A stretch of 64,000 nt of DNA from positions 27,342,001-27,406,000 of the forward strand of contig OX442314.1 in assembly GCA_949358305.1 (NCBI GenBank), in the 5' to 3' direction. Made by a program: the position numbers and the translations under genes. This stretch comes from Strigamia acuminata (Eukaryota). Shown here one piece after another: positions 25,009-64,000 of this stretch. Positions within the stretch are counted from its first letter, which is position 1. Each line of letters opens with the position of its first letter. The notes under the pieces were generated by a model that was not told the origin of the DNA, ran no database searches, and worked only from the letters and a program-made list of their open reading frames with translations.

Positions 25009-28000
25009 CTATAAAGAGTCCATTGTGTTGTAAACTCCTTTTCTCTTTTTGTTATTTTTATACCCAGGTAATGCTTGTAACCGGCCGGGTTTCTTAGTTG
25101 ACATATCATCAGGACTTCCGTTGCCACTATCACCACTCTGCAGAAAACTTTTTTCTCCAGAATTGATAAAGTTTGAGTTAATACCATTGCTAAAGTATGA
25201 TCCATTGACTGATGAACTTAAATTGAGACCTGCTAATGTATCCTTGCTACCAAGCGAAGATAGTCCATTTCCATTCAAATATGAACCAGCACTAGTTGAT
25301 TTTTGAAGGACTGTATTGAGTGAATGTATATTTTGAGTAAATATTACAATTTAATCAATTTCTTGTAGAGCTTACACAAATTTCTCCCACATGAATCTTC
25401 TTTAGCTTTCTGTAAAAGCTCTGCAGTCCTTCGAGGCTTAAAATAATTGCCAGCAATATCTTCTTGAGCACCTTTTTGAAGCTTCTGTTAATAACAATAA
25501 TAAATTTTAATTCCAAATTACATTTTAGTGGCTGGAGTTTATACCAGGTGGTTTAGCATTATGATTATTAGTGCATTCATGGAAATTATTCAAAATTATC
25601 AAAAGTGCAGCAATATCTGCTCCCGACCTTTCTTGTAGTGCTTTGCCGTCCATTTTACGGTAATTTTTTTTGCATATGTTACCTGTGACAACACTACACA
25701 AGCGACTTTTTTTACCATTTGAAAAACTTTATAACCCGTGAATAGAAAATGGTAATTTTTCTGCAAAAATCTCCATTTTTTTGCAAAAAAAAGGCGATTT
25801 TTGGGGATTCGACGCCAATTCCATAGATCGCCGATGACTGCCGGGCGCTAAAACGGGCCCAGCGTCTTACTGAACCCGGACGTTTAAACGAGGCGGTATG
25901 GCAATGATATTAGCATTTACCATGTTTACATGTACCCAGTTATCTGGATAAATGAAAATGCGAATTTTACTTTTCTGGAAAATTGATCATGTAAACAAAT
26001 CAGTTTTCTAGAAAAAACAGACTTATCTGGAAAACTAAATTCCAGTTGTACGAGCTAGATTTTGGGCGTTTTGCGCATTGAAAACTGCATGTAAACACCC
26101 GTGCATGCAAAAATTCAAAAACTTGGATCAAGATATCGTCAGATCGTTGAAGTAAAAATACGTTAGGCTTACGTACCAACGACATTTGGTACCAAAATCA
26201 ATGTGAAATCAGCTAAAACCACCATTTTTGGGATCAGAATTTGCATATTAGGCACCATTGCAAAGATCGAGCAAAAACCTCTTTTCTAACCACCATTTCA
26301 TTTGTTTGGCTGAAATGGATCAACAGCCATTTTGTTGTTCCAGATAATCAAAGGGCAGTATGGGTAATTCTCGTATGACGTCACGTTTATCAGAAAACTA
26401 ACGTCATGTAAACGCAAACGGTTATCCAGATAAATAAAATCCGAATATTCACTTATCTGGAAAACTGTGACCATGTAAACATGGTAAATGACTGGTCCAT
26501 TTTCTAGATAGTGAGACCATGGTGTGGTCTATAGGCCAATGATTCTTCATCTGTTTGGGGTCCAGTAGACCCCTTAGATTCTCAAAATATTTTCTCGCAC
26601 CTCCGAATGCACTCTTTTATAATGTAAAACCACTGGCACAGCATATACAGCTACCCATATTACTTTAAGAAACTTATCTTCTCCATCATTGCTGGCATCA
26701 TCATCATGCAAAGTTGTGTATATATTAACCGGGCTTGCAGGTATACCATTAACCATTTGCACTCTGCCTCCTGGTTGAATACCTAGATCCAAACAAAAAA
26801 TTTCCAATAAATTTCTAATTTTTGTTAACTAGACAAAGTAAATTTTACCTGCTGGTGGTAATTTGGTTTTACAAATTTGCAAATCAGGTAATCGCCAACA
26901 CTGTTGATCAGCATCCCATTGGGATTCGTTCTTAATTTTGTCTAAGTTACTGTAGTTACAGTCCCTTCTGATGCAAGGTTGAACTTTAGTGAGAATTTGC
27001 TGCATTAGTTTAACATGTTGATCTTGTTTGCGTATTGTTTCTAAATAGTCCACTCTGTCTCCTTCGAATTCACTGTGGATATCCCGGATTTCTATTTGCA
27101 GTGAATCAATCTTTCTTTTGGCTTTTTTGAGCAATTCTGTTTTGGCTTTTAGTTCTTCCTGAATGTTGTCATAAACCTTGAGCATAACCAAATCATCTTC
27201 ATTTACTTGATGCAATGCTTCTATATTAATGAAAAAAACATATATTGGTTCAACCCACCAAAGTTTTAATAGATTCGTGCAATAACTGAAAAACACAGCA
27301 ATAGAATGTCCTCCAAATGGATGTTCTATTGTATCCAATTGACATGTTTGGGACTCTAACTCCCATTAGTTGAGCCGGATTACACCTAACTGTGGACTGT
27401 GCTGTGCTCTACTGCGCGGAAAAGTAGTTCCGTTTAATTTCAATGAATTTCAGTGTAAAAAGTGATTAGAATGATGGATTGTATTTAATTTGTAATAAAA
27501 TTGTTAATTTGCTAAATCTGCTTTTTCCCCTTTTAATCAATCAAATAATGTTAGCATAGTTTGTAGGGTTTCTGTTTTCCCGCCTTTTTTTAATTCCCGG
27601 TTCCCGGTACCAAAATGGCCGGGACTCCCGGAACTAAAAAAGGTCAGGCGACTAAAAATGACTGTTTTTCGTCAAAATTGGCCGTTATTCGTCAAAAATA
27701 GCCATTTTCATCATCGAAACGTTACAAAATGTAACGTTTCAATGACGAAAATGATGTTTCAGCAACGTTTTGACCATTTTAGATGCAACCAGTTATTTTT
27801 TCAAATTACCTGGTTCCCGGTTCTGTTATTTTTCAACGGGTTTTCCGGTAACAAAAGGCTATTGGCCGGTTAAACAAAGGTTTAGTTTTTTATTGGTTGT
27901 TTTGCCTATAGTCTGTGCACGGTATCTTGATGCTAAATTCGTACTGCGCATCCCATTCTGCGCAGACGATTTTATAAATCCAGTTGTTATTTAGCAGTAT

Positions 28001-31000
28001 TAAGCCTAATATTAGGCCTAAGTAATGCTAAAATAAAGTAAATACACTACAATAAACTCATAATTAAAAGTAATTTGCAACGTAGTACCAAAATATTTTT
28101 GTTTATTTACCTTATTTTCGCATTATTAGGCCTAATATTAGGCTTAATACTGCCACATAACAACTGGAATTAGAAAATCGTCTGCGCAAAATGGGATGCG
28201 CAGTACGAATTTAGCATCAAGATAACGTGCGCGGACTGTAGTTAGATTACAATTCTGGTGTTATGGGCTACTTTTGTGCCAATACACCAGTGAGATGGCT
28301 CAACCAATAGGAGTTAGGATTACATTGTATCGGTTTGGTGTATAACTTAACACATGGCTCCGTTCCCAATTTTTGTTGTAAATAACATCAATAAAATACC
28401 CTGTAAGTTTTTAAACCGCTTTTCCGCTGCTCTTTTCTTCTTAAGTCTCTTCTCTTTGAGTTCTTTGTCGTTTACTCTTTCTCCTCCAACCATCTGCTCT
28501 TCCAACTGTTGTAGCCTAAAGAATGAATTAAAAAAAATTTGTATTATAATCCAACATTTAGAATATCCATCACAATAAAAATAATTCAAAGTATTTAATT
28601 TTTACAGTCAAGCTAAATATTTTTGCCACATTACCAATGTTAACACTTGAACAAATTATTACCTTTCCAGTGCTTGGACTTGCATGTTTGTTAATGTGTG
28701 CGGATCGCTTGTATGTAAAAGAGATAGATTTGGTATCCTAAAATATTAAATTAATCTATATACCTTTTCAATGCATTTCCTTTTGAATCTGTTAATGGTA
28801 TTTGTTGAACATCATTTTCAGGAACCTTTAAAACATAAATGTTTCATTAGTACTGTATTTGATTAATGTATTAGTTAAACATGATTATGACCATTGTCCA
28901 AACAATTTTAATACCCAAATACGTCGCAATATTGGCACCTCCAACCCTTGCCATTGTTATTGTGACATACGGTACAGAATTATTGCATGCAAACAACCAT
29001 GCTAATTGTTACAACTAAATCTGGGATTCGGGATTCAATAATTAAAGATTCGAGAAGGGTTCAGAAAGATTCAGGTAATTGTCGTACACTTTGCATGCAG
29101 CATCCCTTGATTTGTACAGTAGGGAGCAGTGTTGTATCGAACGCAAACTATTGGTTCGCGTTTGCGACCTCAGTTGGTTAGTTCACGAACTAAGATCGCG
29201 AACTAGTTCACTTTTACAAGTGAATGCAAAAAACGAACTTACAAGGGGAGAGCACCAATAAGCTATCACAGATTGTTATAATATTAAACAAGAAGGATTG
29301 TTATATCATGCTGAATGAGACCCTAAAATAATTTTATTCCATAGACAGCCAACAATGCAAACAATGAGCTCAAAGTTGGCACTATTTTGTCTGTGTATAC
29401 ATCAAATCTGAGCAATCAGGCCTAGTGTATGAATACTGTAAACAACAGTTGCTAGGTAAAAAATAGTCCCAAGATCCAAGTTCAATTTTATCATTTGAGA
29501 TTCAATGATGTCATTTCCTCTTTTGATATCACATGACATATGACATCAGAACTTTGTTCAACAACATGACTGTCTTCATGAAGACAATAATAGTTTGTAG
29601 TGGTGGTCCAGTGGTTCAGGCAATGGACTAGGAATCTTTCCACACAGGTTCAAATCCTGGTGTGTGTGAAAATTTTTTACTTTTATTTTTTATTTTTTTT
29701 TAGCAGTAATTTTAATGTTTGTAATTTTATGTTTGTTAAAAAATTAAAATTAATTAATTAAAGTTTTCTAAAAACAAACATAAAATTACAAACATTAAAA
29801 TTACTGCTAAAAAAAAATAAAAAATAAAAGTAAAAAATTTTCACACACACCAGGATTTGAACCTGTGTGGAAAGATTCCTAGTCCATTGCCTGAACCACT
29901 GGACCACCACTACAAACTATTATTGTCTTCATGAAGACAGTCATGTTGTTGAACAAAGTTCTGATGTCATATGTCATGTGATATCAAAAGAGGAAATGAC
30001 ATCATTGAATCTCAAATGATAAAATTGAACTTGGATCTTGGGACTATTTTTTACCTAGCAACTGTTGTTTACAGTATTCATACACTAGGCCTGATTGCTC
30101 AGATTTGATGTATACACAGACAAAATAGTGCCAACTTTGAGCTCATTGTTTGCATTGTTGGCTGTCTATGGAATAAAATTATTTTAGGGTCTCATTCAGC
30201 ATGATATAACAATCCTTCTTGTTTAATATTATAACAATCTGTGATAGCTTATTGGTGCTCTCCCCTTGTTAGTTCACTTTTAAGAGTGAACTTGAACGAA
30301 GTGATGAAAACAAAGTGATGAAAACGTCGCAAAAACATAACTTTTTGCATTGGTTTTAAATGTTTTGATCACTTTTTACAACGAAAACAGTGGCAAAAAC
30401 AGCCGTTTTCGTCATTAAAATCAATGAAAACTGCTTTACTAAAAAAAAGGTGTTTTTTTTCCCTTCTGCAAGCCACAAAACATAAAAGAAATTAATTTCA
30501 ATTTCTTAAAAAAAATTGGTAAAGTGAACTGAACTATTGGTTCAAGTTTGTGAACTTGAACTTAGTTCACTTTGAAATAAATTGTAGTGAACGTGAACTA
30601 GTTCACACGGTGATGAACGCGAACTTAAACTAGTTCGTGATTTGGTGAACGAGATACAACACTGGTAGGGAATTCACTGTATTATACTATAATTGAAACT
30701 AAAGAGTTTGGATAATCTTACCGCATGCTGTTTATTGCTTAAATTAGAAAGCTCTTCTTCATATTTTTGTTTTAAACTGGACACATGTTCTTGTAATTTG
30801 GCATTACTCCTTTGTTCTGCATGATATTTTTCTTTTAATTCATGCATCATTTGTTCATATTCCTATAAAAATTCACATTTTTAAAACATTTATATTGCTA
30901 AATTGCCATAATCTACTCAAACTAACTTGTTGTAATTTTTCTTTTGCTCTGTTTACTTCATCTGTGAATAAAAGTAAATTTTGTTTTAAGCATTACAAGA

Positions 31001-47417: not shown

Positions 47418-50400
47418 CTATTTTTTCTTTAATTTTAGTAACTTAGAAACCAGCTTTTGCATGAGTTGTGGAATTGCAAGAATAGAAAAGCCAAGCATCA
47501 GTGAAAAACAATTTCCAATGTCACAACACAGTGCAACTCCAGTGTAGGATAATACTTGTGAATACTCTTCAATTATGTTATTCAGTGGACTAAGACCAAG
47601 AACTTTGATTGGCCATGCTTCGGGATGTTGAAAGTGAACATATGTGTCAAACACTTGTTCTTCACAAAGTGGATGACAACCGCACTCGTTCATTACATTA
47701 GTAGTTAAAGATCTGTTCATGAACAATGCTAATGAAGTTTTAGCATCTGCAATATTGGTACAATCATCTTTTTTGATGTTGACCAAAAATGGTAACCTAA
47801 AAATATTTGAATAACATATTACAAACTACATAGTAGAACGTTTAGTACAAAGTTCGTAAATATCATTTCTTTAGTTTTTTTTCTATTTTGCTAAACAAAG
47901 AAAAACCGAACAAATGATACGTATGACAAATTTTTGCGTAAATACTAAAAGAAAAAATACTCACTTGCACTGAATTTCGTTATAAATCTTGTTGTCGTAG
48001 CAATCGTCTTGGCATCTTTTATGTTTGTCTCGGTCAAGGCAAGGTTGAGATTGTAAATTCAATCGGATGGTCTAAATTAAAACAATTGGTTAAGCAGTTT
48101 TGTTTACAATTGTCTGCAAACATACTTTAAGCATTTTGAATGTGAGAATGGTAAACGTATTTCTTTTAATAGATCTTCTGCTCTTGAGAATTGATGGAAT
48201 GGATGGGATTGTTGCTTCGCTTTGTTGAAAGTACACCTGCAGAAAGATAATTATATTTTATCGTAGTATTCAAGATCAGTTTGCTTCTGATGAAATAGCC
48301 TTGCAGTTAACTAAAATACAAGATGGTGCAGGTATATTTTATCTCTGTGCATTCTGCTAAGGTCTATAGTAAATTTCGGTGATCCATAATGACGGCGACG
48401 TTCGTACGCGCATACAGATGTTGCTAATATTCAAATGTGCGACGTCGTGGATACGAATTGTTTCATCATGTAAATCCGCGACTTCGAGGTGCATTTATAC
48501 GCGCATACGGCATTATTTAGTTTGATTATGACAGTAAGTTTGTGCAGTTAGCTAAGCGCCTGAGTGCTGTGCAAGATCAACAGTTGATGACAAATGGAAT
48601 TCATTCATTACTTCGTATTCATCTGGCTTACAGATTTGACGCTTGTTTGGTCGAAAACTAAAAAATATTACTGTAGCAACACCAGCATAAGTTAGTGGAC
48701 CTAAGAAAACAATGTCGTTTTAGTCGTTCTCTAACTTTTGCACAAATTTTTAATTACGCATATGAGATTGATAGCATGTTCCTGTGTGCATTGGTATTTT
48801 GCTCCAAGATACATTCGATCTAAATCCTGTGTTCTGATAAGAAAATACTTTTTACCGGTGTATATAATTTTCTTAAGTTTGGTTGAATTTGATTAAAGGC
48901 ACGAGTTTCATCTAGCACTCACATTTTATCTAATGGGTTATGCCTTTTGAGTCAATGGCATTGATCCCTCAATGCTTATTGACACAACAGACATTTTTAA
49001 ATATCGAACCAAACACTCACACTTGCAGCAAATTCCATGATGACCTTATCCATTACGGGTGTTTGAAATCTCCATACATCTTCCATCGATGATTTTTTCC
49101 CTCTGATAGTCTTATTCATTAAATCAATGAAGTGAATTTTACATTCTGGAATGCCTGTAGTGTTGGCATATTGGCTTCTGTAGTGTGTCATTAAGGGTCC
49201 GTCCATACATGCAATTACGTTGGGCAAATATAATGTGTCATTTTCTTGAATAGTTACTACATATCTTGTCGGTTCGCTCAAATATAATGTGATTCTTTCT
49301 TTGCTTACATAAACCGCTAGTAAGCCGGAAATAAAAACAAGAATACGATACAACGTTCGTTGAAGCTTGGGCGAAGTTTCCATTGTCTTTTTCTTCAAAT
49401 TTTCCGATTTGATTTGATTAACAATTTTGGTTTTTATCTGAGCTTGTAGTCGAACAGGTCTGATATAATTGCAGAAGAGGAGCAAACCAAAGTGTACAAT
49501 TTCGATTATAGAGAGGAGAGACAATCCCAAGCAAAATCCTAGGTTGCCACCCAAATCGATCACCAAATTCGGAATTTTGTAAATGTAGATTTCTGTCATT
49601 CTGACAAATGTTTCTTCCATCACTTTAAAATTTATACTTGCTAAATCTTTACTACTGGGTTCATCTTCAAAATCTAACAATGAAAGATGAATAATTTTGT
49701 TATAATTACACATCAAAATGATAATGTTTGACTTAACTAGTATCGGTGTGCATTACTAGGAGATAAACTCTTGTTTGACAAGGTCTTAAGCAACCACATT
49801 CAATTGTTGCCAGCGTGGATGTTTCGGGTTTATATGAGTTTTCATACACTTGAGCCACGATTGATTTGTTTGCTTCCAAACTGCAGTCTGGCAGATTTTT
49901 GTCAGCCATGTAAGGCAACCTAAGCTTAAGTTAACAATCTATTAGCATACTAATGAATGATCAATGTGTACTTTAGGTAAGTTTAAACCTGCACTTTGGA
50001 TCGGTTTTGAGATTTTGCTTGGTCACACACTCTTTATAACATTCGGTCTGCTTCTCCAGGCTGGGCTCACAGTAGGGGTTTCTTGAAGGCAAAAATTGAT
50101 ACTTGCAGGAAAGAAATACAATTTTACTATTTTAGTTATATGTATTGATTTACAAATCAAATGTATTATAAATGCATAAAGATAACTAATTATGCAACGC
50201 GATTCACAGTTGAATAAGCTGCAAGAAATATACGAGCAAGCAATTATAACTCACTTGACGCAAAATAAATGAAATTTTAATTTCAATTCCCATCTGCGTT
50301 GTCATGGTATATCTATACGGCATGACACCATCCTTCGGAGACATCTAGTATTAAATTGTGTTATGTATATTATATTACTTTTACACTATACTCTTGTTCG

Positions 50401-53009
50401 ACTCAAATATCAAAAGGGTGGCCTTCTCCTATTGGCCGAGCCGTATCACTGGTATAGTGCTCCAAAAATATAGACCCAAACACCAGAAATGCATTACAAT
50501 GTACAGACATTGTAATCGATTGCCTACGTAACAGCCAAAATTTCAAAACTGTTTGCTTTCCAGACAAAGCCACCAATAAACAGAACAAACATGAGTTTTA
50601 CATTTATATGTGCATAAAACTTTATTTTCTAAATGGAAATAACATTTTATAATAAAATACAATTAAAGTTATATCAATTTAAATGGTCATAATAATCTAA
50701 AAAATAAATAAAAATAAAAACTATTTCTCCTAGTGGTAGTAATACAGACTGGATTTAGGAGTAATGCGGCTCGGCCAATGGGAGAAGGCCACCCTTTTGA
50801 GTCGAACAAGAGTATAGCTGCATTTAAAAAAATCATGTTTCAAATGTTGTAGGTGTTTGTTTTTCTTATTCTTTTTTTGACATCAGAAATCAAAAACACA
50901 AACACATACAGTGGTCGCCAAAGGTTTAGCACCACTACTGTCATTTGCACTATTTAGTGCTTTCAGATACAAAATATGAATTTGGCATTAAATTCTGCTC
51001 TGAGAAAATGCTAAAACATTTAAACAAATCATACATTGTAATTAACAATAGTAATTTTTATTGTTTGTATGCAAATTGTTGCTGGACAAACGTTCAGAAA
51101 ATCATTGTTGATTTGAACAACACATTTAAATATTTTGTTTGCTAACCGACTAATAAGCAATCAGCTTATTAGTCGATTCGTCAAATCATGACGAATCGAT
51201 TTTGACAAAATGAACTGACCATAATCATTGGTGCTTTACAGGTCCCATTTTTCTTAAAGACGGCATTAAATTTTCTGTTTAGAGCTAGTTTGTTTATAAT
51301 ATTTTGTTTGCTAACCGACTAATAAGCAATCAGCTTATTAGTCGATTCGTCAAATCATGACGAATCGATTTTGACAAAATGAACTGACCATAATCATTGG
51401 TGCTTTACAGGTCCCATTTTTCTTAAAGACGGCATTAAATTTTCTGTTTAGAGCTAGTTTTACATCTAAAAAAATAGCTTACTCAAAAATTATATAAACA
51501 GACAAGATAATTATCGTATATTAATTTTACCTGTTGTTATAATTAGTGTACGGCCAAAAACATAATCGTTGTATTTTAATGCAAATGTTTTATCTTGATT
51601 TGTATAATTGCCACTTTTTATCTTAGTGCCAAGTAACACAGTTTTGCCCTTAAAAAAAGTTATTGGCAAGTTATTGGAAACAATATTTGTTAATACGGCT
51701 TTCTTAGGTATCCAAAAGAACAGTATACAGGGTGTCCCAAATGAACGAAGCCAGTCAAGTAACGAAAAGACCATTTGAGTGAGATGAATGAAACGAATGT
51801 AGTACTAGTAAACTAAGTGAGGGCATTTCAAAAATGTGAGACAATTTGACCTCTGACCTTTTCTTCAAAGTCATTCCTACTCTAACTTCTAAACTAAGAC
51901 TGGTAGAGCAAAATTCTCAATTGAAAAAAGAAAGAGCACATTCTGTTTAGTAGAAAACTGCTTATCAAATTTACTCCGACACAATAACAGATAAAATTAC
52001 GAAAAAAATAAATCGTGAGAAAGTCAAAACATTCCAAGAAAAGTGCTTTATTTTGCTGACATTCTAAGTACTACTTCAAATTACTATGGAGTCATGAATT
52101 GTTATTAATTTAACTGATATTTTAAATGATATTTCACAAATAAAATTATGAAAAAGTCAAAAAATACAAAAACGAAAACCAAGATCAAGACTATTTCATG
52201 ATTTATTTTTTTTGTAATTTTATCTGTTATTGTGTCGGAGTAAATTTGATGAGTAGTTTCTACTAAACAGAAGGTGCTCTTTCTTTTTTCAATTAAGAAT
52301 TTGCTCTACCAGTCTTAGTTTAGAAGTTAGAGTTGGAATGCCCTTGAATAAAAGGTCAGAGATTAAATTTTTTCACATTTTTGAAATGCCCTTAGTTAGT
52401 TTACTAGTACTACATTTGCTTCATTCATCTCACTCAAATGGTCTTTTCGTTATTTGACTGGCTTCGTTCATTTGGGACACCCTGTATATAATTTCTTTTT
52501 AAATTGCATAAAGGAATAAGGTAACTGGCCTGTTTGATTTTGAGGTGCTGCATATTTTCTGATATATTGGAATGTTCCCACAAGTTTGTATAATTTTCAA
52601 CCTTGACTTGCTGTGAGATGATTCCTCTCACTGGGATCCTGCAAGCTTTCATTAACTCTTGTGCACCATCAATTGTATTAGGTTCTGGTATTTTGTCCCA
52701 GTACTTCGACATCAATGGAGTGTCAAGAGCCACGAGTCTCACTTCAGGGAATCTGTTTTCCTGTATTGGAACAAACTCAATTTCAACTTTGTAATTTCCA
52801 GACATGTAGAAGCGAAATCTTTCCCAAGTTTGATAGCTGAAGATGCCGAAACAAACGACCAAACCAAGCAACCAAATGAAACGAAGTATTCCAGTGTTCT
52901 CGAGAACTTGGTTTATAAATTGAAAACTATCTTTGCCCGTCAGTGAAGTTTGCATTTCTTGTTGCACATATTGGCGAATACAGTTACGGGTCCGACGAAT
53001 AAGCAACAT
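47418..53009 (-). CDS. DEG/ENaC (pickpocket/ASIC-like) channel gene encoding two subunits fused in one 824-aa polypeptide
   Basis: Exons 53009-52530, 51648-51531, 51465-51389, 50344-50255, 50101-49989, 49919-49738, 49673-49021, 48833-48758, 48700-48612, 48236-48126, 48071-47965 and 47796-47418 are all phase-compatible (2475 nt). Unit 1: TM1 RFIWLLGLVVCFGIFSYQ, FPEV, Cys-rich thumb ECGCLRPC, TM2 DLGGNLGFCLGLSLLSIIE. Unit 2: TM1 RILVFISGLLAVYV, LPNVIAC, GTCY, ECGCHPLCEE, TM2 DIGNCFSLMLGFSILAI. Confidence 0.8.
50391..50812. mobile_element. TA-flanked MITE (TIR CTCTTGTTCGACTCAAA...AAGGGTGGCCTTCTCC)
   Basis: About 55-bp imperfect TIRs, TATA on both sides; intronic. Confidence 0.75.
51129..51460. 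repeat. Tandem duplication (period 169 bp) covering most of DEG/ENaC exon 3 and a double hairpin
   Basis: 51129-51291 is repeated at 51298-51460. Confidence 0.9.
51728..52484. mobile_element. Tc1/mariner-like MITE (TIR CAGGGTGTCCCAAATGAACG..., ~300-bp arms)
   Basis: Long imperfect TIRs, TA TSD, CAGGGTG terminus; lies in the first intron of the DEG/ENaC gene. Confidence 0.85.
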
Positions 53010-54390
53010 TCTAGGAGCCGTTATTTTTCTTCAAATCAACTTTAAAAGCTAAAACTACATAACAGTTTAACGTTGATGGTACTTAAATGATGAAAACTAA
53101 TTATATTTTAAATTAACTTTTGTATTTGGAAATAATTTTAAATTAATTTAATTTCTTTTTCACACGAACTTAAAATGATTATGGTTGTAAAACTCCGCAA
53201 GTTAATTTGTTTCCAATTTAATGTTTTCTAAGGCAATGACTCTTTTCAATTTGTCAACAGCAATGAAAGGAACTAAAGTCATTAAAGTTTAATGAAATAT
53301 TGACATTTCAATACTATAAGCTGAATTTATGATGGAAGTTTGCGAGATAGGAGTCAGTTCATATCATTTTTTACCAAAAAGTTTTGAAAGTATAAGTAAG
53401 TCGCCACGGTCATTTATTTTGTCGCGTCCTTTGCAGGTAATGTTAAATAACCGTGGTTTGTTTTACCTGATCCTTTCTACCAAAATAATTATCTACAATA
53501 TACTAAAAGGAATAAAGTGTTTGTGACGGGTGCAGTCTTGTCCATAGCAACCTGGGGATTGATTACTATGGGTGGGACTAGACCTCACGAAATAATGGAG
53601 ACAGTGATTTCGGATTGTTGGGTTTTGGTCTTTAATCCGTTGTCTAGGGGTCGGAGTTCCTATCACCCCTTAGGGCCACACCCGCAACCGACCCGTCACA
53701 CCCAGAGTGTTTGCCCGTGAGTGACGTGGTCTGATAATACTGTTGCATATATGATGTGTGCAACTCTGACTGCAGGAATGCAGTCGTCATGTTTGTCTTC
53801 CTATTTGGGCATGAAAGCCCAAGAGAAAGTAAGACGTGTTATCTGAGTGAGATTTTGGAGTCGATTAGTTTATTTATTCCATTAAGAATGGTTGGTTGCC
53901 TCATGTACGGTTGCCTAGGAGAATCCTAGGCAACCGTACATGATTGTTGTTAGTCAAAATGAAGTGTGTAATACACAACATGCCTTCCCCCTGTAATAAT
54001 GTTACAAGGGAAAGGCAGTGCGAATGGTGGCTTGGCGTCCTGCGACGGGTGTAGTGTCCCACGATGAGCGGCGACGTAACAATTTTACTTTATGGGCCAC
54101 CTCTCAGATCATTTACAAAATTTGGTTTTAGGGGTAACCAAGGGTGGGAAAAGGAATGGCGTTGACGGTTTTGGGGGCAAACGAAAACGGAAGTAGAAAA
54201 CAACAGTTTAATGACCAACGATTAACATCAGATTTTTGCTTTCACATTTTTAAAATGTTAATTTTATTGTTAGCAGTCAGTCATTTTCTCCCCAGCATTG
54301 TTATCCACGTGCGCTCTGATTGTCAACCATCTTTGTTTTTGCATCAGTTTTACACCTGATTTCATGTAATAAAAACGTTTCATTTCACTC

Positions 54391-54556
54391 TGTCGTGATT
54401 TGATATGTATCCGCGCCACTAGATGGCGCTACGTATGGTGACACCTGGCGCCGGTGTTTACCTGCGTTGATTACCTGGAATAAAAGCTCAGTTGAATTTA
54501 GTACATCATACCAACCATTGTGTCCTTATTTTGTCTGCTAAATACAGGATACGACA
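54391..54556 (+). repeat. 5' LTR (166 bp) of a Ty3/gypsy element
   Basis: TGTCGT...ACGACA termini, AATAAA at 54479, followed by PBS TGGCGACGAGGAT (54558-54570), complementary to the 3' end of tRNA-Ser(GCU). Confidence 0.85.
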
Positions 54557-54685
54557 TTGGCGACGAGGATTAAAGCAATGAGAATCCGTTGACATCAAAC
54601 ACTGGACTTGTAAACCATCAATTTGAGTAGGGTGAGTGTGTTTGCAAAGTGGGCGTGGTCGTGTCTACACGAATTTTTCAAGAAA

Positions 54686-57411
54686 ATGGCCACCAATTTA
54701 ATTTACCGAGTGTTGCGAATTTCGATATATCCGAGGGTAATTTGGAGAAGTGGAGCCAAGCTTTTGGCTATTATTTGATTGCGGCGAGAGTGGGCGAAGC
54801 TCAGAAGTTGGCAACGCTGCTGCACCTCGCTGGAAGCGCCGTGCAGGACATTTTCGATACATTTGAGCCGGCGAATAAAGCGACGTACGATTTGGCCGAG
54901 GCCGCGTTGGCCGTTTATTTCAACCCACGGAAGAATTTGCGGTTCGAACGGCACACATTTTGACAGCAAACGCAAGAGCCCGGTGAACAAATGGACGCCT
55001 ACGTGACGCGTTTAAAAACAATGGTAAAAAGCTGTGAATTTGGGGTTTTGGAAGAAGATTTAATCGTCGATCAAGTGCTGGAAAAAGGCCGCGATAAAGG
55101 CTTGCGGCGGCGCTTGCTGCGCGAAACAAATTTGACTTTAGATTCGTTGTTAACGTTGGCTCGTTCGTCGGAAGCAAGTGAACGACACGCAACAGCGATG
55201 GAACGCACAGCAACGGAGAACATCAAGGAAAACCTCGTAAATCAGCTGGGTGAGAAAAAACAGTTTTTTAAAAATTGCGGAAATAGTAGGGGGCGTGGCA
55301 CATTTCGAAAATCCAACTCGAAGCCGCAAAACACGGACGATAGACGGGAAAACAAACCTCAAGGAGTGAAAGAATGCTATCGGTGTGGCCACAAGGACCA
55401 TCTGGCGAATGATTGCACCGTTGCTAAGAACAAGGAGTGCGGATTTTGCCATAAACTGGGCCATTTTGCCAAAGTTTGCAGGTTGAAGAGCGCCGGAGGT
55501 CGTGCACGAGGAAAGGACCGTGTCCAATACGTCGGTGTCAACGAATACGACTATGACAGCGAGTACTCGTGTTGCTTAACGTCTCAGAGACGGGATAATG
55601 GCGTGACCGTCAGAATCGAACAAGAGGTAAAATTTTTGATTGATTCGGGTTCGTCGGTAAATACAGTTGATCAGAAGACGCGGACATTATTGAAAAAGAA
55701 AGGAATTAAACTGACACCAACAAAGACGAGATTGTTTGCGTATGGAGTGAATGAACCGTTAGTAGTTAGTGGGGAATTTAATGCACAAGTGCAAACCGCG
55801 AAGAAATCTTTGAATACGAGATTTTTGGTCGTGCCGTCGGGAAAATTGCCGTTATTGTCTCGGAAAACATCCGAAGATTTGGGATTTTTGAAAATCGATG
55901 AAGAAATTGTGAATGAAATTAATAATGATGATAATTCTTTATTTGATGAGTCTGTAGGAAAACTACGAAAGGACTTGGCCAATCGAATTACGAAATTCCG
56001 AGATGTTTTCAAGGGAATAGGAAAACTAAAAGAGTTTGAATTGGAACTTTAAATCGACCCGGACGTGCGACCAGTGGCACAATCAGTGCGGCGGATACCA
56101 TTCCATATCCGTAAACAATTAGATATTGAAATTGACAATTTATTACAACAGGATATTATCGAGCCAGTTACGGGGGCAACGGACTGGGTTTCACCCGTCG
56201 TACCTGTGAAAAAGCCTGATGGCTCGATACGCATTTGTTTGGATATGCGTGCAGTCAACGAGGCCGTCAAGAGGAACCGCCATCCACTTCCCACCATGGA
56301 GGAGGTCCTCGACGAAATCGACGGCGCTGAGGTTATTTCAAAACTGGATTGTCGTCAGGGATACCTGCAGATCCCTCTCAAAGAAGATTCGCGACGTTAT
56401 ACGGTGTTCGTCACACACCGTGGCCTTTTTAGGTACAAAAGACTTTTTTTCGGAATAGCAAGTGCGCCGGAGGAGTACCAACGCATCGTGCAGAATATTT
56501 TGGCCGACTGCGAGGGCACGAGGAATTTGTTGGACGATATCGTCGTGCATGGGCGGACGGCAGCGGAACACGACGAGCGTTTGGAGAAGGTTTTCGAGAC
56601 GTTGTCTCGAAATGGTTTGACATTAAATCTCAAAAAGTGTTGTTTTGGGGTATCGAAATTGACTTTTCTTGGCCATGTTATTTCTAGAAGTGGAATTTCA
56701 GTGGCGGAATCGAAGGTGGAAGCTGTGCGAAATGCCGTAGCACCCAGGAATGAAACTGAAATTCGAAGTTTCTTGGGGCTAATTAATTATTGCGCCAGAT
56801 TTATCCCTAATTTCGCGACGGAGGCAGAGCCACTGCGACTAATGGCCAGGAAAGACGTTGCATTCGAATGGGGAAAACGCCAGAACGACGCATTCGAGCG
56901 ATTGAAGGGACTTTTATGCAGTTCGGACGTGTTGGCGTTTTTCCGAAAAAACGTCGAGACTGAATTGATCGTCGACGCGTCGCCCGGTGGGCTTGGAGCC
57001 GTGTTGCTCCAACGTCAGGTCGACGGGGCCATGAAGCCAATTGCGTTCGCGAGCCGAACGTTGTCAGATGTTGAACGCCGTTATTCGCAGACCGAGAAGG
57101 AGGGGCTCGCAGTCGTTTGGGGCTGCGAGCGCTTCAGAATGTATTTAATCGGCATGCCATTTCTCCTTATTACAGACCACAAAGCCCTCGTGACCATTTA
57201 TGGGACCAGATCCAAGCCATCAGCGAGGATGGAAAGATGGGTCTTGAGACTGCAGCCTTTCGAATTCACGATTCGTCACCGGCCCGGCAGCGCGAAAATT
57301 GCGGACGCGCTCTCTCGTTTGCTGCCGGCCGGAGAAGGGAAAAGTGTTTTTGGACGAACAGAGGGACACGTGCGGTTTATTGTTGAAAGTGCCTTGTTAA
57401 AGGCAATGACT
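54686..57411 (+). pseudogene. gag-pol polyprotein pseudogene
   Basis: Probable ATG at 54686 is out of frame with gag; in-frame stops TGA 54961-54963 and TAA 56050-56052; truncated by the nested insertion. Confidence 0.85.
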
Positions 57412-58083
57412 TGTTACGAATCAACTTAGATGTTTAATTGATTTGATCTGAATTTACGCGCAAGGTGATGTTAGCGCAAATCAGTGGGCAAAGTTCGTAG
57501 ATTTACTCTGTTTGTGCCATCGTCATATGCGGATATCGGACGGTGAATAAACCTAACTCGCTGTAACACACATTATTTATATTCGACGGGCTCAATCTCA
57601 CGTTGTGGGTCTTTACGTTTAAAAAGAATGAGTATGCGCAGTGATATTCGTATGCGGGTGGGCGTAGGATGTCACAGGCATGCGAAGGGATAAAAGGTGG
57701 GCGAAAAGAGGCGCTATTAAGTGTTAAATTAGAAGGTGCGCGTGTTAAAGCGCAAAATAAAGATCGACAAACTCAATTCAATCTAAGAGGTGTTAACTCG
57801 TTGAGAGAAGTATGAGCAGTGTGGATTATGGATAAAAGTAGCGACCAGGTAAACATGAGTCATGTGACCAGGTCGATTGGAGTGGGTGAGGGGGTGGAAG
57901 GTATGAAATAAGGTTAATTGTTGGAAATAATAAGATGCGCGCAATGAAGCTGCGCATATATTTGGAGATGAATCATCGATGTTAGATGAAAAGAAAGATT
58001 GGGAAAAAATAAGAAAACTTAAGATTGGGTCAGTCTAAGTTAGAAATGAATAAAAAAGAAGGGTGGGTAACCTGCCCGTGACA
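57412..58083 (-). repeat. 3' LTR (672 bp) of a second LTR retroelement in opposite orientation
   Basis: On the - strand it reads TGTCACG...CGTAACA and is directly preceded by the polypurine tract AAGGGGGGAGGGA (58096-58084); pol homology stops exactly at 57411. Confidence 0.8.
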
Positions 58084-60795
58084 TCCCTCCCCCCTTAGGC
58101 TTTTATTATTCGAGATTTATCGAAGGGAATAAAAGGATAAGAGACAAGGAAAGTCATACAATAATAATGCGCTATGCGCAAAAACTATACAAATTTTCAA
58201 AAAATAAACAAAAATAAACTAAAATAAAATAAATTAAACAAAAATGATGCGCGTCTGCGCAAAGACTTAACAACTCTGGCATAATAATAAGCAAAAGTTA
58301 AACAATACTAGACTAAATATCAAAAATCAATTAAATTATTAAAAGCAAAGAATTAATAAATCACCATGGCTTTTGCAAATAAATTTAAACTAAGATTTTT
58401 TGTAAAGTCACAATGGTAAATTTTAAATCATTTTACTCGAAATCACAAAACGAAACAGGGACAACACAAGGAGGGCGAACACTAAACCTAAAGGGGCCGA
58501 CGATACCTAGGACGGACGAGAGTCTATACACTTTACCCAAACAAATTATGTAATAAAAACTTTAAACACTTTTACTTTTTACTTTTTGTATAAATAAACA
58601 TTTTTTCTCGTTTCAAAATCAAAACGAATAAAGATCAACAATTTTAAATCAAACGAAAAGAAATAGCCGACACATGAGATTTATCAGGAATCGTGATGGG
58701 ATTTATTAAATCAGATTGGGTATTTATGTTATGGTAGGATGCGCGTAATTGCGCAAAATAAACACAAAATAAAGGTAAAGTACAAAATTATGCAACCTGC
58801 ATAAGGTAAGTATGATTTCAGGTTAATAGGAACTTTTAAAATGGATGCGCGAAACTTTGCGCAAGGATAATTAGGTCATTAATTCTATGAATGGAATGGA
58901 AAACAAAAATATAATATTAGAAACATAACAAATACCCGCGCGCACAACACAACTCGTATTGCCACGGAAATTAAACATGTTGATCTAAAATATCACAGAA
59001 TTAAAGTAATCATGAAAAATTAGTTAAATATCACAATAATCTTGATTAAATATTAAATATTCATAGAAAAAACATTCATTAAATAAATGAAAACATTGAA
59101 TACTAACTTGAATCATTCCAGAATAATTGCGCTAAAAATAACAATGGAAATAAAAATTAAACGAAATTAAATTCCTAAACTTCGGAAGAAATTATCATAA
59201 TTAAATGAAGATAATTCTGGAATGATTATAGCACAAAAAGATATCAAAATAATTAAACTAAAATAGATATTTCAATAATATAACTAAAAAATTATCAACA
59301 TCATAATTGCACTTAAAAACCTTGTGTTGCTGTCACGATGGTTGAGCGATGGCTGATCGTATAGTGGTGAAAAATTACGAGTGGCTTGGGATCCAAAATC
59401 GAGACAACATCCAGCTGGGCCAACAACGCACCGGTGGGAAAGCGAGTTGTTTTACTCCTCGAGCATAATAAAAGCAGCAGCGATATAAAAAAGGTGTTTA
59501 ATCATCCATTTTCTTTGTAACAAGCAGAGAGCACACTCACAACAATCTTGTGTGCTCCTGAACAATCAACTAAATAGAGAAGAATTCAGAAAAGCTCTCA
59601 TGAACTTCCATACATCAGTATTTTTAACCAAACAGATAGACACTATAGGCTACCATATAAGGTGCACAGAAATTCCAAAGAGAATTACACAAGAGAAACT
59701 ACAGATAACTTAAAATGAAGTGATTCATAATGACCACAAAAGGTATTTTAAATTAACAGTTAACTCAACAGATAACAGGAATGTTTTAATCCTTTTAAAA
59801 CATCCTCAAAGCATTTGGAAATGAAGCCAGCCAATAGGAAAGCATCACTCCATTACAACCGGTACTAATTAGACAAATGAATAGTTAAAAACTCAAATCT
59901 AAGTAAAAACTTTTGTAATCAGTTCCAATATTTTCTTATTAATAACAAATTAATTATCCAATACTAAAACCCTTGGTATTTGTCTAATTTCAAATGCAAA
60001 CAATCATCAGGACTGTATCACACCAAAATGGCTTCCTCAATTAATACAAATTAATTGGTTAGTTAATTATAAAATTAACTCATGAGGAAAACCTGAGAGA
60101 CTTAAAGAATCACTGGGATTGCAACTGGACTGTGTCAGATAAGAGCCCTTTTTAGATCTAATTTAAGATTGTAAATTAAAAATCCAATTGTCCGATTCTA
60201 AAGCACTAAAAACGTAAAAATAATTAAACAAAAATATAAATTATCAGTGAGAATTATCACAGTAGAAAAACGTGCGCAAAAAATAATAACACTTATGATG
60301 AAACACTAATAATAATTGTTTGTTCTTCGAATCAACACATCACCGTTGCCCACGTTCCTTCCATTAAGTCCTCCAACTCGAAAGATGTTTTACGGAGCGC
60401 CTCATCAATGGAATCGCATGGCGGAACGGGAAAATGATGAAGATTTAAAGATGATGATGAATGTTGGTTGTGGATACCGTGAAGATATTTAAATGCAGGC
60501 CAGCCCAAACTCAACGCACAAATGCGGAGATGTTTTATTAGGGCATTTACCAGAGATCCACGATCTGGCGGCGCATTTTGGACACAATTAGAGATGAAAA
60601 TATATGATGAAAACACAAAATAATGATGAATAGTAGGTTGATGTGCGCACAAAGTATTCGCAAATCACCAGGATCCTCGTATCAAGTCCTTCAACTCCAC
60701 GCCGAAGCGGAGGAATTTTACGAAGCGCCCATTAATACGATCTCCTGACTTCAATTTGCAAAAAACTTGCGCACACAAAGTCACGTTTAGGATTG

Positions 60796-63558
60796 TTATT
60801 CGAAATCCTTTTCCAAGATTTCGCGATGACGAGGAATTCGAAAATATTTAATCATATTAAGCGCAATTTCTACCACTATGCGCTGCGCATCATGAAAATT
60901 AGTCGCACCTCGTCGGTTAATCTCGTTCCGACAATGGTCGAGAAATAACTCGCCATATCGTCGATACAATAGATTTAATAATGGATTAGCTTCGGCCAAA
61001 GGCATGCGTAGATCACCCACGGCGAGGGAACGGAAAAGTTGTCGTTGCGCTTGTGTTGACATTCCAAATTGAAGGCACTCACCTCGACCGTTAGCGAAGT
61101 TGCAGATAATAGCCGCTGGAGACATCAAGCTAGGCAAAAGTTCTGAGGTAATTGTGGGTGGGGCATCGTCCCAACCCGAGAAACCCGGACCCGGTGGAAT
61201 GGATGGCGCAAATTCGTGATGGTGAGCTGAAGTTTGAAGCATCTCTCGCAATTCGTTTAAACGAGTTTCCTCAGCGCGTCGCTTTTCTTCCGCTTCCTTA
61301 GCTTCCTGGATCGCTTTCTTTTCCTCCTCAACACGATGGATCTCGGCAACGCGTGCTTTTTCCGCCGCATGTTTCTGCTCGTACTCCCGTTGACGTTGCT
61401 CGGTGGTCATTCGCTCGTAGTCACGACGGCGCCGAATGTGATAGATCATGCGCGAGATCTCCTCATGCATGATCCAAATCAACTGCTCCAGAACGCCATC
61501 ATGATCGTAGATATCGCATTCCGACATCCGCCTCAATACTTGAGCAGCCATATCGCGAATGCGAGTCTTCATCTGACCATGAATGTTACGGAAATCCGCA
61601 CGAAGTATCTCAAAATCTTTGTCCATCATATGTTCTAAAAGCGCAATCCACCCTTTACGTTCCATATGAAATCGGGTCTTAGATACTTCTGGCCCCTTCA
61701 CGCAAATTTCGACTTCGAATTCATCTAATAAATCGGGAATTAGTTCCAGAGAATTTACCGGTTTCGTTGTTACGCCGTATCGGTCAACTGCCAGATCGCA
61801 ATGAGAGGCAATATCTCCAAGAGCCTGTGCCCCATCAGAGGCGACAGTCGCGCTGGCTTCGGTAGGAGCCACTCGAGGGGGCGGCGTCGAAGTCTGACTA
61901 GAGGAGACCGAAATCGTACTTGGTGTGGAAGCGGCCTTTGTAGTTGTGGAAACATTGCGCGATGGTAACTGCGCATAGGTGATGGGTCCAGGCGTCGACA
62001 CTGGAATGTTCGAGATTTTTGACGCTGAGCACGATGGTGTTTCTGTTGCTTTGGCCGCCGTTGTTGTAGTAGAAGTTACACTTGAGGTTGTCACGAAAAT
62101 ATTTTTCTTTGCCAAAAGCTTCGGTCGGGCACCTGTATTGGAATTAAGATTGTTATTAGCAATTGGTTTCAAAGAAGATGCAGATAAATTCGCATTCTGT
62201 GGCGATTGTGCAAATCGTTCCCGCATCGCTGGAGGAAGTCGTGCACTGAGTGGTGGTCCGCGGGGTTGCTGCATGGTCGGAACATTGGACAATCGTGGAT
62301 CGGCCATTTTCCGCTCCAACTTTCGAACGTCCTGGACCTGTGCAGCCGGTGCTTCCGCAAAAATCTCATGAGCCACTCCACAGATGGACGGGGTTACACT
62401 GAAACTTGATTCGTTGTCCCGAACTGGTGGAGTGCTGGAACGACGCTGGGCGATTTCTTCGTTATGCATACGAGTTAATTCCGCCATTTCTTGTTCAGTC
62501 ACATTTCCCAACGTAGAACGGCCAGAATAATAGCGCAAATCACAGGGCGGATCTGAGTTCTCGTTTTTTGTAACTGGAATTGAATCAATATGGGTAGACA
62601 CACTTGTGAACATGGAATCGTCGTCGTCCTCATCATCCCCGTTATCGTCAATGGATAAACCGGCCAGTTGCGCTGTTGCTTGCGCAAGGGTTTCCTCGGA
62701 TGGCTGTGGACGGTATCTAGTCGTATTGGTGTCCCGAGTTTCGTCACGGCGCAAAGGCATTTTCGTGTCCTCGATCTTACCCAGCACTTTCTGCGTAAGT
62801 TTCTCCGTACGATCCTCTCGTCTGTTGATTGAACATGGAGGACGATTTCCTGTAAAATAGGGTAATACTGACTGGTCATTAGTGTCTATGGTATCCATTG
62901 CGCCCTGAGTCTCTGCAACCAGTTCCACTTGCTCACTCATCATCGAGGCATCCCCTGGAAATGGGTGAAAATAGCGAATTGTTGCGGATTGCATCTGATC
63001 AACAAGATGTTGTTCTTTCAACATGGGAGCCAGTCCTTCCACTTCGTCTTGGAGTAAGTTTGGCACTTGGATATATAGAAGTTGAACTACCTCAGCCATC
63101 GGATAGATCCATTGTCGCGGTGTAATGCGATTTGTGTGCGCAACCCGTTGCGCCCGGTGCCAATACCAGAAATGAATTGTCCGAAACCTCTGTATCGACA
63201 CCGGACTCCCGTTCAGTGGTCGAAAAGGCGGGTATGTCACGCTTACGATAATCACATGGTCTTGTTCATATCTTCGCAACACCCAACCGTAGATTTGGCG
63301 CATCCAAACAATGTGTAGATTGCGCCGTAAGTCCCCCCGACCGTCACACGCCCGGCACTTGCACTCCGGTCTCGGCGGGTCGATCTCTTTACCATAGCCG
63401 GAACATACCGGACATATCTCGAAATTGGGGAATCCAGCATCGAGTGGATCATCGGGATGGTTGTGCGGAAACTTTGGTGGACCCGCCGCATGTAAAGGCG
63501 GCGTTCGATAGTTTTTCGGATATTTCCTTCCCGGGAAGTCCTCATTACAACACGCCAT
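60796..63558 (-). CDS. Orphan intronless ~920-aa protein: two CxxCxGxG motifs, acidic and Ser/Thr/Pro-rich linker, coiled coil
   Basis: Open frame 63825-60796; first ATG at 63558 (context AACATGG). Contains CPVCSGYG...CRACDGRG, DDNGDDEDDDD and an E/K/R-rich helix (EQRQREYEQKHAAEKARVAEIHRVEEEKKAIQEAKEAEEKRRAEE). GC content is visibly higher than in the flanks. Confidence 0.8.
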   Translation of the reverse strand: MACCNEDFPGRKYPKNYRTPPLHAAGPPKFPHNHPDDPLDAGFPNFEICPVCSGYGKEIDPPRPECKCRACDGRGDLRRNLHIVWMRQIYGWVLRRYEQDHVIIVSVTYPPFRPLNGSPVSIQRFRTIHFWYWHRAQRVAHTNRITPRQWIYPMAEVVQLLYIQVPNLLQDEVEGLAPMLKEQHLVDQMQSATIRYFHPFPGDASMMSEQVELVAETQGAMDTIDTNDQSVLPYFTGNRPPCSINRREDRTEKLTQKVLGKIEDTKMPLRRDETRDTNTTRYRPQPSEETLAQATAQLAGLSIDDNGDDEDDDDSMFTSVSTHIDSIPVTKNENSDPPCDLRYYSGRSTLGNVTEQEMAELTRMHNEEIAQRRSSTPPVRDNESSFSVTPSICGVAHEIFAEAPAAQVQDVRKLERKMADPRLSNVPTMQQPRGPPLSARLPPAMRERFAQSPQNANLSASSLKPIANNNLNSNTGARPKLLAKKNIFVTTSSVTSTTTTAAKATETPSCSASKISNIPVSTPGPITYAQLPSRNVSTTTKAASTPSTISVSSSQTSTPPPRVAPTEASATVASDGAQALGDIASHCDLAVDRYGVTTKPVNSLELIPDLLDEFEVEICVKGPEVSKTRFHMERKGWIALLEHMMDKDFEILRADFRNIHGQMKTRIRDMAAQVLRRMSECDIYDHDGVLEQLIWIMHEEISRMIYHIRRRRDYERMTTEQRQREYEQKHAAEKARVAEIHRVEEEKKAIQEAKEAEEKRRAEETRLNELREMLQTSAHHHEFAPSIPPGPGFSGWDDAPPTITSELLPSLMSPAAIICNFANGRGECLQFGMSTQAQRQLFRSLAVGDLRMPLAEANPLLNLLYRRYGELFLDHCRNEINRRGATNFHDAQRIVVEIALNMIKYFRIPRHREILEKDFE

Positions 63559-64000
63559 GTTGGTTTCAATATGTTGATAAAAATATAATGCGCCTAAGTT
63601 GGTGGAGGCAATATTTATATAAATACACAAAACAAATAAGACGTTTGACAAACGATACTCACAATTATCAAGCGCAACAACACGAACGCGCACAGAACGA
63701 AACAAACAACGAGGAGTAAAGAATATTCCCAGGAATGTAACGAGTCGTAAAACTTTGCTTCGAGAAGCTTCGATGAACGATTGAAAACTCGCACATGTAA
63801 TAAAGTCGGGTTCGAGGTTAGACACTAACTAATTGCAATAGAAAGGCGACATCCAGTGTTGGAATTCAGAAGTTAACGAAAGTTGTCTTCGCTCAAAACT
63901 CTTGTTTCAAAGTGATTAAATAAGGATGGTGAGATAAACAAGTAACAATTCAGAACACAGAATATTAATTTAAATAAAGTGCGCATAAATTATATTAATT

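Follow-up and report, generated by a model that had tools for sequence, protein, structure and literature searches.

A window of 64,000 nucleotides from the centipede Strigamia acuminata (assembly GCA_949358305.1, contig OX442314.1, positions 27,342,001 to 27,406,000) contains a long terminal repeat (LTR) retroelement with an unusual open reading frame (ORF, P0001) at 60796–63558 of the minus strand. This ORF is a real, selected orphan gene of a centipede LTR family, and the element around it is filled with an unexplained short motif, GCGCA, whose element-wide excess is new here. The frame runs for 920 codons from ATG to TAA in the sense orientation of the element, and the longest stop-free frame among 2000 base shuffles had 298 codons. 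The original prediction, made from the sequence of the window, had described an intronless frame of 2.76 kb, sense to the polypurine tract and the 3′ LTR and about 2.7 kb upstream of that LTR, and this description holds for all 920 codons (63558–60796, minus strand).

The ORF lies inside the LTR element, upstream of the polypurine tract and the 3′ LTR, probably in the position occupied by the additional ORFs (aORFs) and ORF3s of other LTR elements. The 3′ LTR (57412–58083, minus strand) is 672 bp long, is bounded by TG..CA and contains a TATA-like element at 57581 and ATTAAA at 57438. The tract of 13 purines (58084–58096, minus strand) abuts the LTR at the TG at 58083, and the CA end at 57412 adjoins TGACT at 57407–57411, the point at which the reverse transcriptase (RT)–RNase H frame of an older, plus-strand Gypsy element is cut. 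Between the ORF and the polypurine tract extends a 3′ internal region of 2.7 kb (58097–60795, minus strand), which is AT-rich (32% GC) and indel-rich among copies; on the element strand, none of its frames that start with ATG reaches 40 codons. The reverse orientation of the element was rejected, as no TGG primer site follows the LTR on the plus strand and the polypurine tract is on the minus strand. The lack of a plus-strand primer site therefore makes the ORF sense and the LTR at 57412–58083 the 3′ LTR. The second LTR copy was not found within the window, which ends 442 bases upstream of the ORF ATG; these 442 bases are non-coding and show neither an LTR end nor LTR-level depth. The pol gene probably lies upstream of the ORF, beyond the window. 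No tRNA or Rfam family match was obtained.

The abundance of the ORF was assessed in three public sequencing runs (X1, X2 and X3, of six listed), in which about half of the words of the element are present. The single-copy yardstick was taken from contigs that differ little from the older pol, at depths of 251–297 (X1), 100–110 (X2) and 33–51 (X3). Relative to this yardstick, the summed ORF depth was 45–58-fold in X1, 29–39-fold in X2 and 14–30-fold in X3, and single contigs alone reached 9–22 times the single-copy depth over the ORF in X2 and X3. Contig depth is only a rough proxy for the number of copies, and the sums are raised by overlap between contigs; the estimate is therefore kept at about ten copies as a minimum and tens as a maximum. 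A single-copy ORF had been named beforehand as an outcome that would count against the original prediction; the ORF is multi-copy, at about 10–50 times single-copy depth in all three runs. Moreover, the cover in X1 and X3 is unbroken between the LTR and 64000, the ORF included, so that the ORF and the LTR are linked by continuous multi-copy cover as well as by a shared motif excess (see below). The depth of X2 is low at 63808–64000 and was given no weight.

The ORF is present and conserved across many copies. Among 38 variant sites in the ORF (37 from the best 40 of 328 listed places and one from a second comparison), 26 are synonymous, 12 are non-synonymous and none is a stop, whereas the transition bias of the data would predict 31% synonymous changes (P = 2e-6). 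The resulting ratio of non-synonymous to synonymous polymorphism (pN/pS) of 0.22 indicates purifying selection. Synonymous and non-synonymous sites stand at 7:1 in residues 1–215, 13:7 in residues 216–585 and 6:4 in residues 586–920. Two indels with a share of at least 15% were listed, +3 inside the ORF and −1 at 63573, upstream of the ATG, and no frameshift within the ORF was found among the listed common variants. Of the best 12 among 71 listed indels, 10 fall in the 3′ region, and the ORF contains none of the 12. Since the differences are mostly synonymous and no common frameshift occurs, the ORF is very probably a selected gene of this multi-copy LTR family. Several side observations concern the family as a whole. 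The LTR depth is 6.8–10.5 times the ORF depth, whereas intact elements would give 2, which suggests many solo LTRs or other families with the same LTR. A loose contig end at 58109 shows different internal sequence behind the same polypurine tract, and contig joints 58971–63201, 59317–60177 and 62327–63045 indicate internally deleted derivatives at about 1–2 single-copy depths in X1.

The frame remains open for 90 codons upstream of the ATG, and this extension contains a hydrophobic stretch that no ATG precedes. Position 63558 was taken as the start because the −1 indel at 63573, just upstream of the ATG, breaks the extension in other copies. At 63554–63582 diverged copies retain the ATG and its context, with first codons that differ in frame (loose contig ends, read by hand, one with an agreement of only 0.58), and this retention supports 63558 as the ORF start. 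A TATA-like TATATAA (63615–63621, minus strand), 63 nt 5′ of the ATG, may be an internal promoter, and an acceptor-like AG ends at 63594; both are consensus matches only. At the other end of the gene, at 60798, one contig each in X1 and X2 has the same stop codon and 3′ region and then runs into other sequence, in which the 10 codons shown are open (read by hand). These contigs perhaps represent a subfamily whose C-terminus differs, or a different ORF occupying this slot.

The encoded protein has near its N-terminus an HPD tripeptide in a proline-rich context (residues 34–36; 63451–63459) and two CxxCxGxG motifs (residues 49–75; 63334–63414), namely C49-x2-C-x-G-x-G and C68-x2-C-x-G-x-G, which likely form one zinc site and open a basic region with a net charge of +9 (residues 49–160). 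At loose contig ends read by hand, the ATG context, the HPD (one diverged copy, end at 63435) and the zinc-motif residues (ends at 63404, 63384 and 63373) are kept via synonymous codons. There follow an acidic region (residues 161–420; 62299–63078; net −21) with DDEDDDD at 308, predicted by a low-confidence model to be mostly unstructured, and a basic low-complexity region rich in serine, threonine and proline (S/T/P; residues 421–585; 61804–62298; net +10). The remainder is predicted to comprise a beta-hairpin plus helices (residues 610–715; 61414–61731; predicted local distance difference test score, pLDDT, about 35–75), a long charged helix (residues 716–776; 61231–61413) with a bipartite pattern like a nuclear localization signal at 747–761, and a mostly helical C-terminal domain (residues 808–920; 60799–61137), all of these features being on the minus strand. 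Two predicted helical units are thereby separated by the 60-residue charged helix and a proline linker. Judged from its charge layout, the protein resembles a transcription regulator. Residues 716–776 contain 51% E, K or R and 15% L, I, V, M or F, a composition that is probably closer to a charged single helix than to a coiled coil. The CxxCxGxG pair at 63414–63334, the S/T/P region and the helical C-terminal part of the original prediction were thus recovered, and its coiled coil probably does not hold. The predicted domains were also considered as copies of an internal repeat, which was rejected because the scores fell within the shuffle range.

Motif and family searches bore out the earlier statements that the protein has no gag, enzyme or envelope features. 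It contains no CX2CX4HX4C (CCHC) knuckle, and Pfam gave no RT, RNase H, protease, integrase, gag or capsid family and no J-domain family. The best 19-residue Kyte–Doolittle mean is 1.18, so that no signal-like or transmembrane segment was found (by hydropathy only, with no dedicated predictor). The Pfam DnaJ_CXXCXGXG family scored 14–15 bits against a cut-off of 32.7, and all matches in Pfam, NCBIfam and PHROGs are below cut-offs or limited to the charged helix; profile searches do not recognize the ORF as a gag or a known host gene. The whole protein found no homologue among candidates of 506–1610 residues, and residues 30–215 gave none at E ≤ 10 among 77 candidates of 30–505 residues. The 1.84 billion representatives searched yielded one match (E 5e-4), which reflects shared composition with a coiled protein rich in alanine and proline. 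The ESM Atlas (whole protein and residues 30–215), PDB sequences, and viral and metagenome contigs were blank, and two short ORF peptides had no match in the searched part of the PMC6673714 supplements. Eukaryotic transposon proteins may be thin in the searched libraries, and the blank searches are no proof of novelty. Two single-sequence folds of low confidence (pLDDT 40 and 54; N-terminal domain not folded on its own) gave nothing at E ≤ 0.001 in fold searches, including no fusogen match, and the comparison with capsids and other folds reached a best Z of 7.4 on generic helices. Because both models are single-sequence and weak, the fold searches are uninformative.

The second main result concerns the DNA of the element, for which motifs were counted in the window copy only (57412–64000). 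GCGCA and its complement TGCGC occur 58 times in this segment, with 51 GCGC cores, whereas dinucleotide shuffles give 10.3 (at most 21 in any of 200 shuffles). The excess extends over all parts of the element, with observed and expected counts of 10 and 1.3 in the LTR, 21 and 2.2 in the 3′ region, 22 and 6.6 in the ORF and 5 and 0.6 in the leader. Since all four share it, they belong to one element, independently of sequencing depth. Synonymous shuffling of the ORF leaves 11.0 motifs against the observed 22, a count reached by 2 of 2000 shuffles. The ORF carries the element's own excess and has therefore evolved inside the element. No excess was found in the older Gypsy (3 vs 7.5) or in host DNA (20 vs 21; 24 vs 24). 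In a scan of all 5-mers GCGCA reached a log10 P of −23 (first-order) and −13 (second-order), while the best 5-mer of nine control segments reached −5.2 and −4.2. The motif is distributed almost equally between orientations (28 TGCGC, 30 GCGCA). Nine TGCGC-N(1–11)-GCGCA inverted pairs are present against 1.6 expected; none of 10000 placements reaches nine, and the other 57 kb contain two. Only 46 of 6589 element bases are masked as tandem repeat. None of the 51 listed variants falls in a motif core, where about 1.5 are expected, a number too small to inform on conservation across copies. The motif is dense, short and element-specific, as are the marks read by VANC of the plant VANDAL transposons, its specificity being judged against the rest of the 64-kb window.

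CpG methylation offers one context for this motif. GCGC accounts for 23% of CpGs in the non-coding part of the element and for 4% in host DNA and the older Gypsy, and the element is not CpG-poor. TGCGCA is described as the hexamer whose methylation is most stable in cells of vertebrates, not in a centipede (PMC13082072). The excess is therefore unlikely to be a remnant of CpG decay. A G at position −1 is reported to be disfavoured by DNMT1 in vitro, again not in a centipede study (PMC7381644), and the GCGC context was considered as a means of evading DNMT1; this idea lost support, as TGCGCA ranks first for stable methylation.

As the leading explanation, the ORF product is tentatively interpreted as an intracellular accessory protein that binds the element's own GCGCA and activates the element or shields it from silencing, with a probability of about one in three. 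The ORF would be expressed from the internal TATA promoter or from a spliced RNA, and its protein would enter the nucleus, where its basic N-terminal part with the zinc finger would contact motif DNA. Host activators would be recruited by the acidic and S/T/P regions, resulting in activation or protection from methylation, and the long helix would bridge the variably spaced motif pairs. In this way the family would activate its own copies in trans, comparable to the action of VANC on VANDAL transposons. VANC targets are reported to be marked by dense family-specific motifs, which VANC binds, lowering methylation (PMC5735166), and TnpA of Spm is described as acting similarly, through motif binding and lower methylation (bioRxiv 10.64898/2026.08.24.746577). 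Strigamia is reported to methylate its transposons (PMC6673714). The more specific version, in which an animal LTR element makes its own anti-silencing factor, a new protein family that reads GCGCA, possibly in methylated form, and reactivates copies in trans, convergently with VANC and TnpA, is rather unlikely. The element-wide motif gives indirect backing to the anti-silencing option of the original prediction.

Several points weigh against this interpretation. The case for the protein binding the motif is indirect, and a host factor could read GCGCA. No known DNA-binding domain was detected, both structural models being of the low confidence given above, and DnaJ-type zinc motifs serve mostly for protein contacts. 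VANC motifs, as described, have 8–9 bases in same-orientation tandem, whereas GCGCA has five bases, is dispersed in both orientations and also occurs in coding sequence. Moreover, spacers of 1–11 bases poorly fit a rigid DNA-binding dimer, all nine pairs can also fold as RNA, and GCGCA was counted in one copy only. As for selection, the 38 variant sites are those best supported among more than 300 listed places, and gaps in the ORF occur in some diverged contigs of low depth, deleted derivatives being present.

It is somewhat unlikely, though worth serious consideration, that the reader of GCGCA is a host transcription factor, and that the ORF encodes an unrelated protein-binding accessory, active in small-RNA or chromatin counter-defence or as a chaperone-like adaptor. 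The two CxxCxGxG motifs resemble, in weak matches, the zinc sites of DnaJ and anti-TRAP, and the HPD kept in one diverged copy would suit an adaptor. The C/EBP half-site GCAAT, however, is not enriched (19 vs 20.9), and GCGCATGCGC, which we take to be the NRF1-type motif, is absent from the element; the motif also occurs throughout the ORF and the 3′ region, distant from promoters. TTGCGCAA, reported as a C/EBP site bound when methylated (PMC4333159), is found three times against 0.2 expected, which favours a host reader, although GCGCA corresponds to neither the full C/EBP site nor the full NRF1 site. The chaperone option itself has little support, because only two of the four DnaJ zinc repeats are present and no J-domain was matched. 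Of the original prediction, which proposed an accessory protein or captured cargo, the multi-copy retroelement gene under purifying selection, with no recognizable envelope, gag or host identity, stands. The motif might instead act in the element RNA, through hairpins or dimerisation contacts, with the protein serving as a Rev-like RNA-binding factor for export or packaging, or as a condensate scaffold. All nine inverted pairs fold as RNA hairpins with stems of at least 5 bp, variable loops and energies of −6.2 to −11.1 kcal/mol, and the protein has basic and low-complexity regions. The stem, however, ends at the 5-bp motif in six of the nine pairs, the majority of the 51 cores stand singly and unpaired, there is no Rfam match, and seven cores fall upstream of the TATA-like element of the LTR, in what is likely its U3. 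An RNA function is consequently considered unlikely.

There are three further explanations. The ORF could be a highly diverged gag, or the sole gene, of a non-autonomous LTR family that has no pol, which presumably would be TR-GAG-like. The window has no pol, the 442 bases before the ORF being non-coding; purifying selection suits a capsid protein, and the fold searches are not decisive. This is nevertheless improbable, given the missing CCHC knuckle and Pfam gag or capsid family, the splitting of the helical units by the charged helix and proline linker, and the absence of an LTR end or LTR-level depth less than 442 bases from the ATG. A gag would, moreover, have pol behind it, where the ORF has 2.7 kb without coding capacity and then the polypurine tract. 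Capture of the ORF as cargo from a virus or host gene, kept for a non-regulatory function, has a reported parallel in bdelloid LTR elements, which captured non-env ORF3s (PMC5408684), and the intronless frame suits retro-capture. No donor was seen, though, in the 1.84 billion representatives (the composition match aside), word-index searches, PDB sequences or viral contigs, and the ORF has the element's motif excess, so that cargo appears decidedly improbable. An unrecognized envelope or fusogen would agree with the location before the 3′ LTR, an RRRR run at residues 709–712 and six N-x-S/T sequons. It is extremely improbable in view of the hydropathy profile, the lack of a hydrophobic peptide following RRRR, and an upstream frame whose hydrophobic stretch has no ATG and which the one-base indel at 63573 breaks.

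Subject to pol being found upstream, the ORF is to be grouped, among known systems, with the additional ORFs that LTR elements carry throughout a family (PMC7264820; PMC5408684). Like the plant aORFs, for example Grande gene23 (PMC7264820), and the bdelloid ORF3s (PMC5408684), it is a family-wide extra gene before the 3′ LTR that has no envelope hallmarks. The product of the Grande 3′ gene is reported to be nuclear and expressed from its own promoter, although gene23 is antisense and the window ORF is sense (PMC7264820). The window ORF differs from these genes in its 920 residues, the absence of an enzyme domain and the element-wide motif, its pol not being in the window. Bdelloid ORF3 variation is described as mostly neutral (PMC5408684), whereas the window ORF is under clear purifying selection. 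With VANC/VANDAL (PMC5735166) and TnpA/Spm (bioRxiv 10.64898/2026.08.24.746577) it shares an element-encoded extra protein, a dense family-specific motif and a methylating host group. Those systems, however, are reported as plant DNA transposons with motifs of 7–9 bases, VANC's in same-orientation tandem arrays of a Mutator-type transposon, whereas the motif here is dispersed, with 28 and 30 copies in the two orientations, in an LTR element; their binding and demethylation are proven, and those of the window ORF would be inferred by analogy. The ORF protein reaches no Pfam family cut-off. It does not belong to the VANC proteins, though it may act in a VANC-like manner.

Foamy-virus Tas is likewise encoded near the 3′ LTR and is described as regulating the transcription of its element (PMC7828637), and the env of Oikopleura Tor is reported to have an internal promoter (PMC4402516), which in the window ORF is a candidate and serves no env. 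No sequence or fold match to Tas or Tor env was obtained with the weak single-sequence models. CopiaMBD of Strigamia maritima is a centipede LTR element that is reported to handle host CpG methylation via an added protein part, but its MBD comes from the host, forms part of the Pol ORF and is proposed to direct integration, whereas the window gene is separate and orphan (PMC6673714). The CxxCxGxG pair is common to the central zinc domain of DnaJ (PF00684) and anti-TRAP (PF15777), from which the ORF protein differs in having two repeats only, scores of less than half the cut-offs, and no J-domain or DnaJ C-terminal match. By its sequence, the product does not appear to be a DnaJ/Hsp40 protein, which is defined by a J-domain and four CxxCxGxG repeats.

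Literature searches on centipede Gypsy ORF3s and animal LTR anti-silencing found no description of the family, although subscription papers, repeat libraries and supplements may contain one. No case of animal LTR anti-silencing appeared in the titles and abstract starts searched, which does not imply absence. The sequence-specific anti-silencing factors found in print come from plant DNA transposons (PMC5735166; bioRxiv 10.64898/2026.08.24.746577), extra ORFs of LTR elements are described as mostly having no assigned function (PMC7264820; PMC5408684), and the host genus is among the few arthropods reported to methylate transposons (PMC6673714). Since an orphan ORF under selection is accompanied here by a candidate cis target, a question of function that is usually untestable becomes open to a direct binding test. 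If the proposed binding is true, an animal retroelement would counter DNA methylation with its own factor; if it is negative, a new selected family of 920-residue proteins and an unexplained element-wide motif remain.

The neighbouring DNA includes the older Gypsy element (54558–57411, plus strand), presumably Mag-like, with a PBS-like TGGCGACGAG, gag with knuckles, protease, RT and RNase H, and with its pol cut just past RNase H by the LTR insertion. Its frame has two in-frame stops, and a 458-codon RT–RNase H frame is still open. The earlier statement of an intact ORF in a decayed element accordingly stands as regards the ORF, the interrupted Gypsy being only mildly decayed. At 53500–54550, upstream of this element, lies repeated DNA that includes its likely 5′ LTR, at a depth that greatly exceeds single copy. 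One kinesin exon of the window agrees with the protein of Strigamia maritima at 123 of 126 residues (89% over the whole query), the other listed proteins reaching at most 79%, which makes a geophilomorph centipede the likely host. Among the kinesin exons, at 29229–30281, two 509-bp arms, 99% complementary and 35 bases apart, are likely a young foldback or an insertion like a miniature inverted-repeat transposable element. The sole two TGCGC-N-GCGCA pairs outside the retroelement are in a 116-bp inverted-repeat element at 27906–28241. PLAT-like exons, which we take to be LOXHD1-like, and duplicated blocks about 4–8 kb apart occupy 1–21000, and several degenerin/ENaC-like exons lie on the minus strand at 47418–53030, with a weak Pfam ASC match in one of them.

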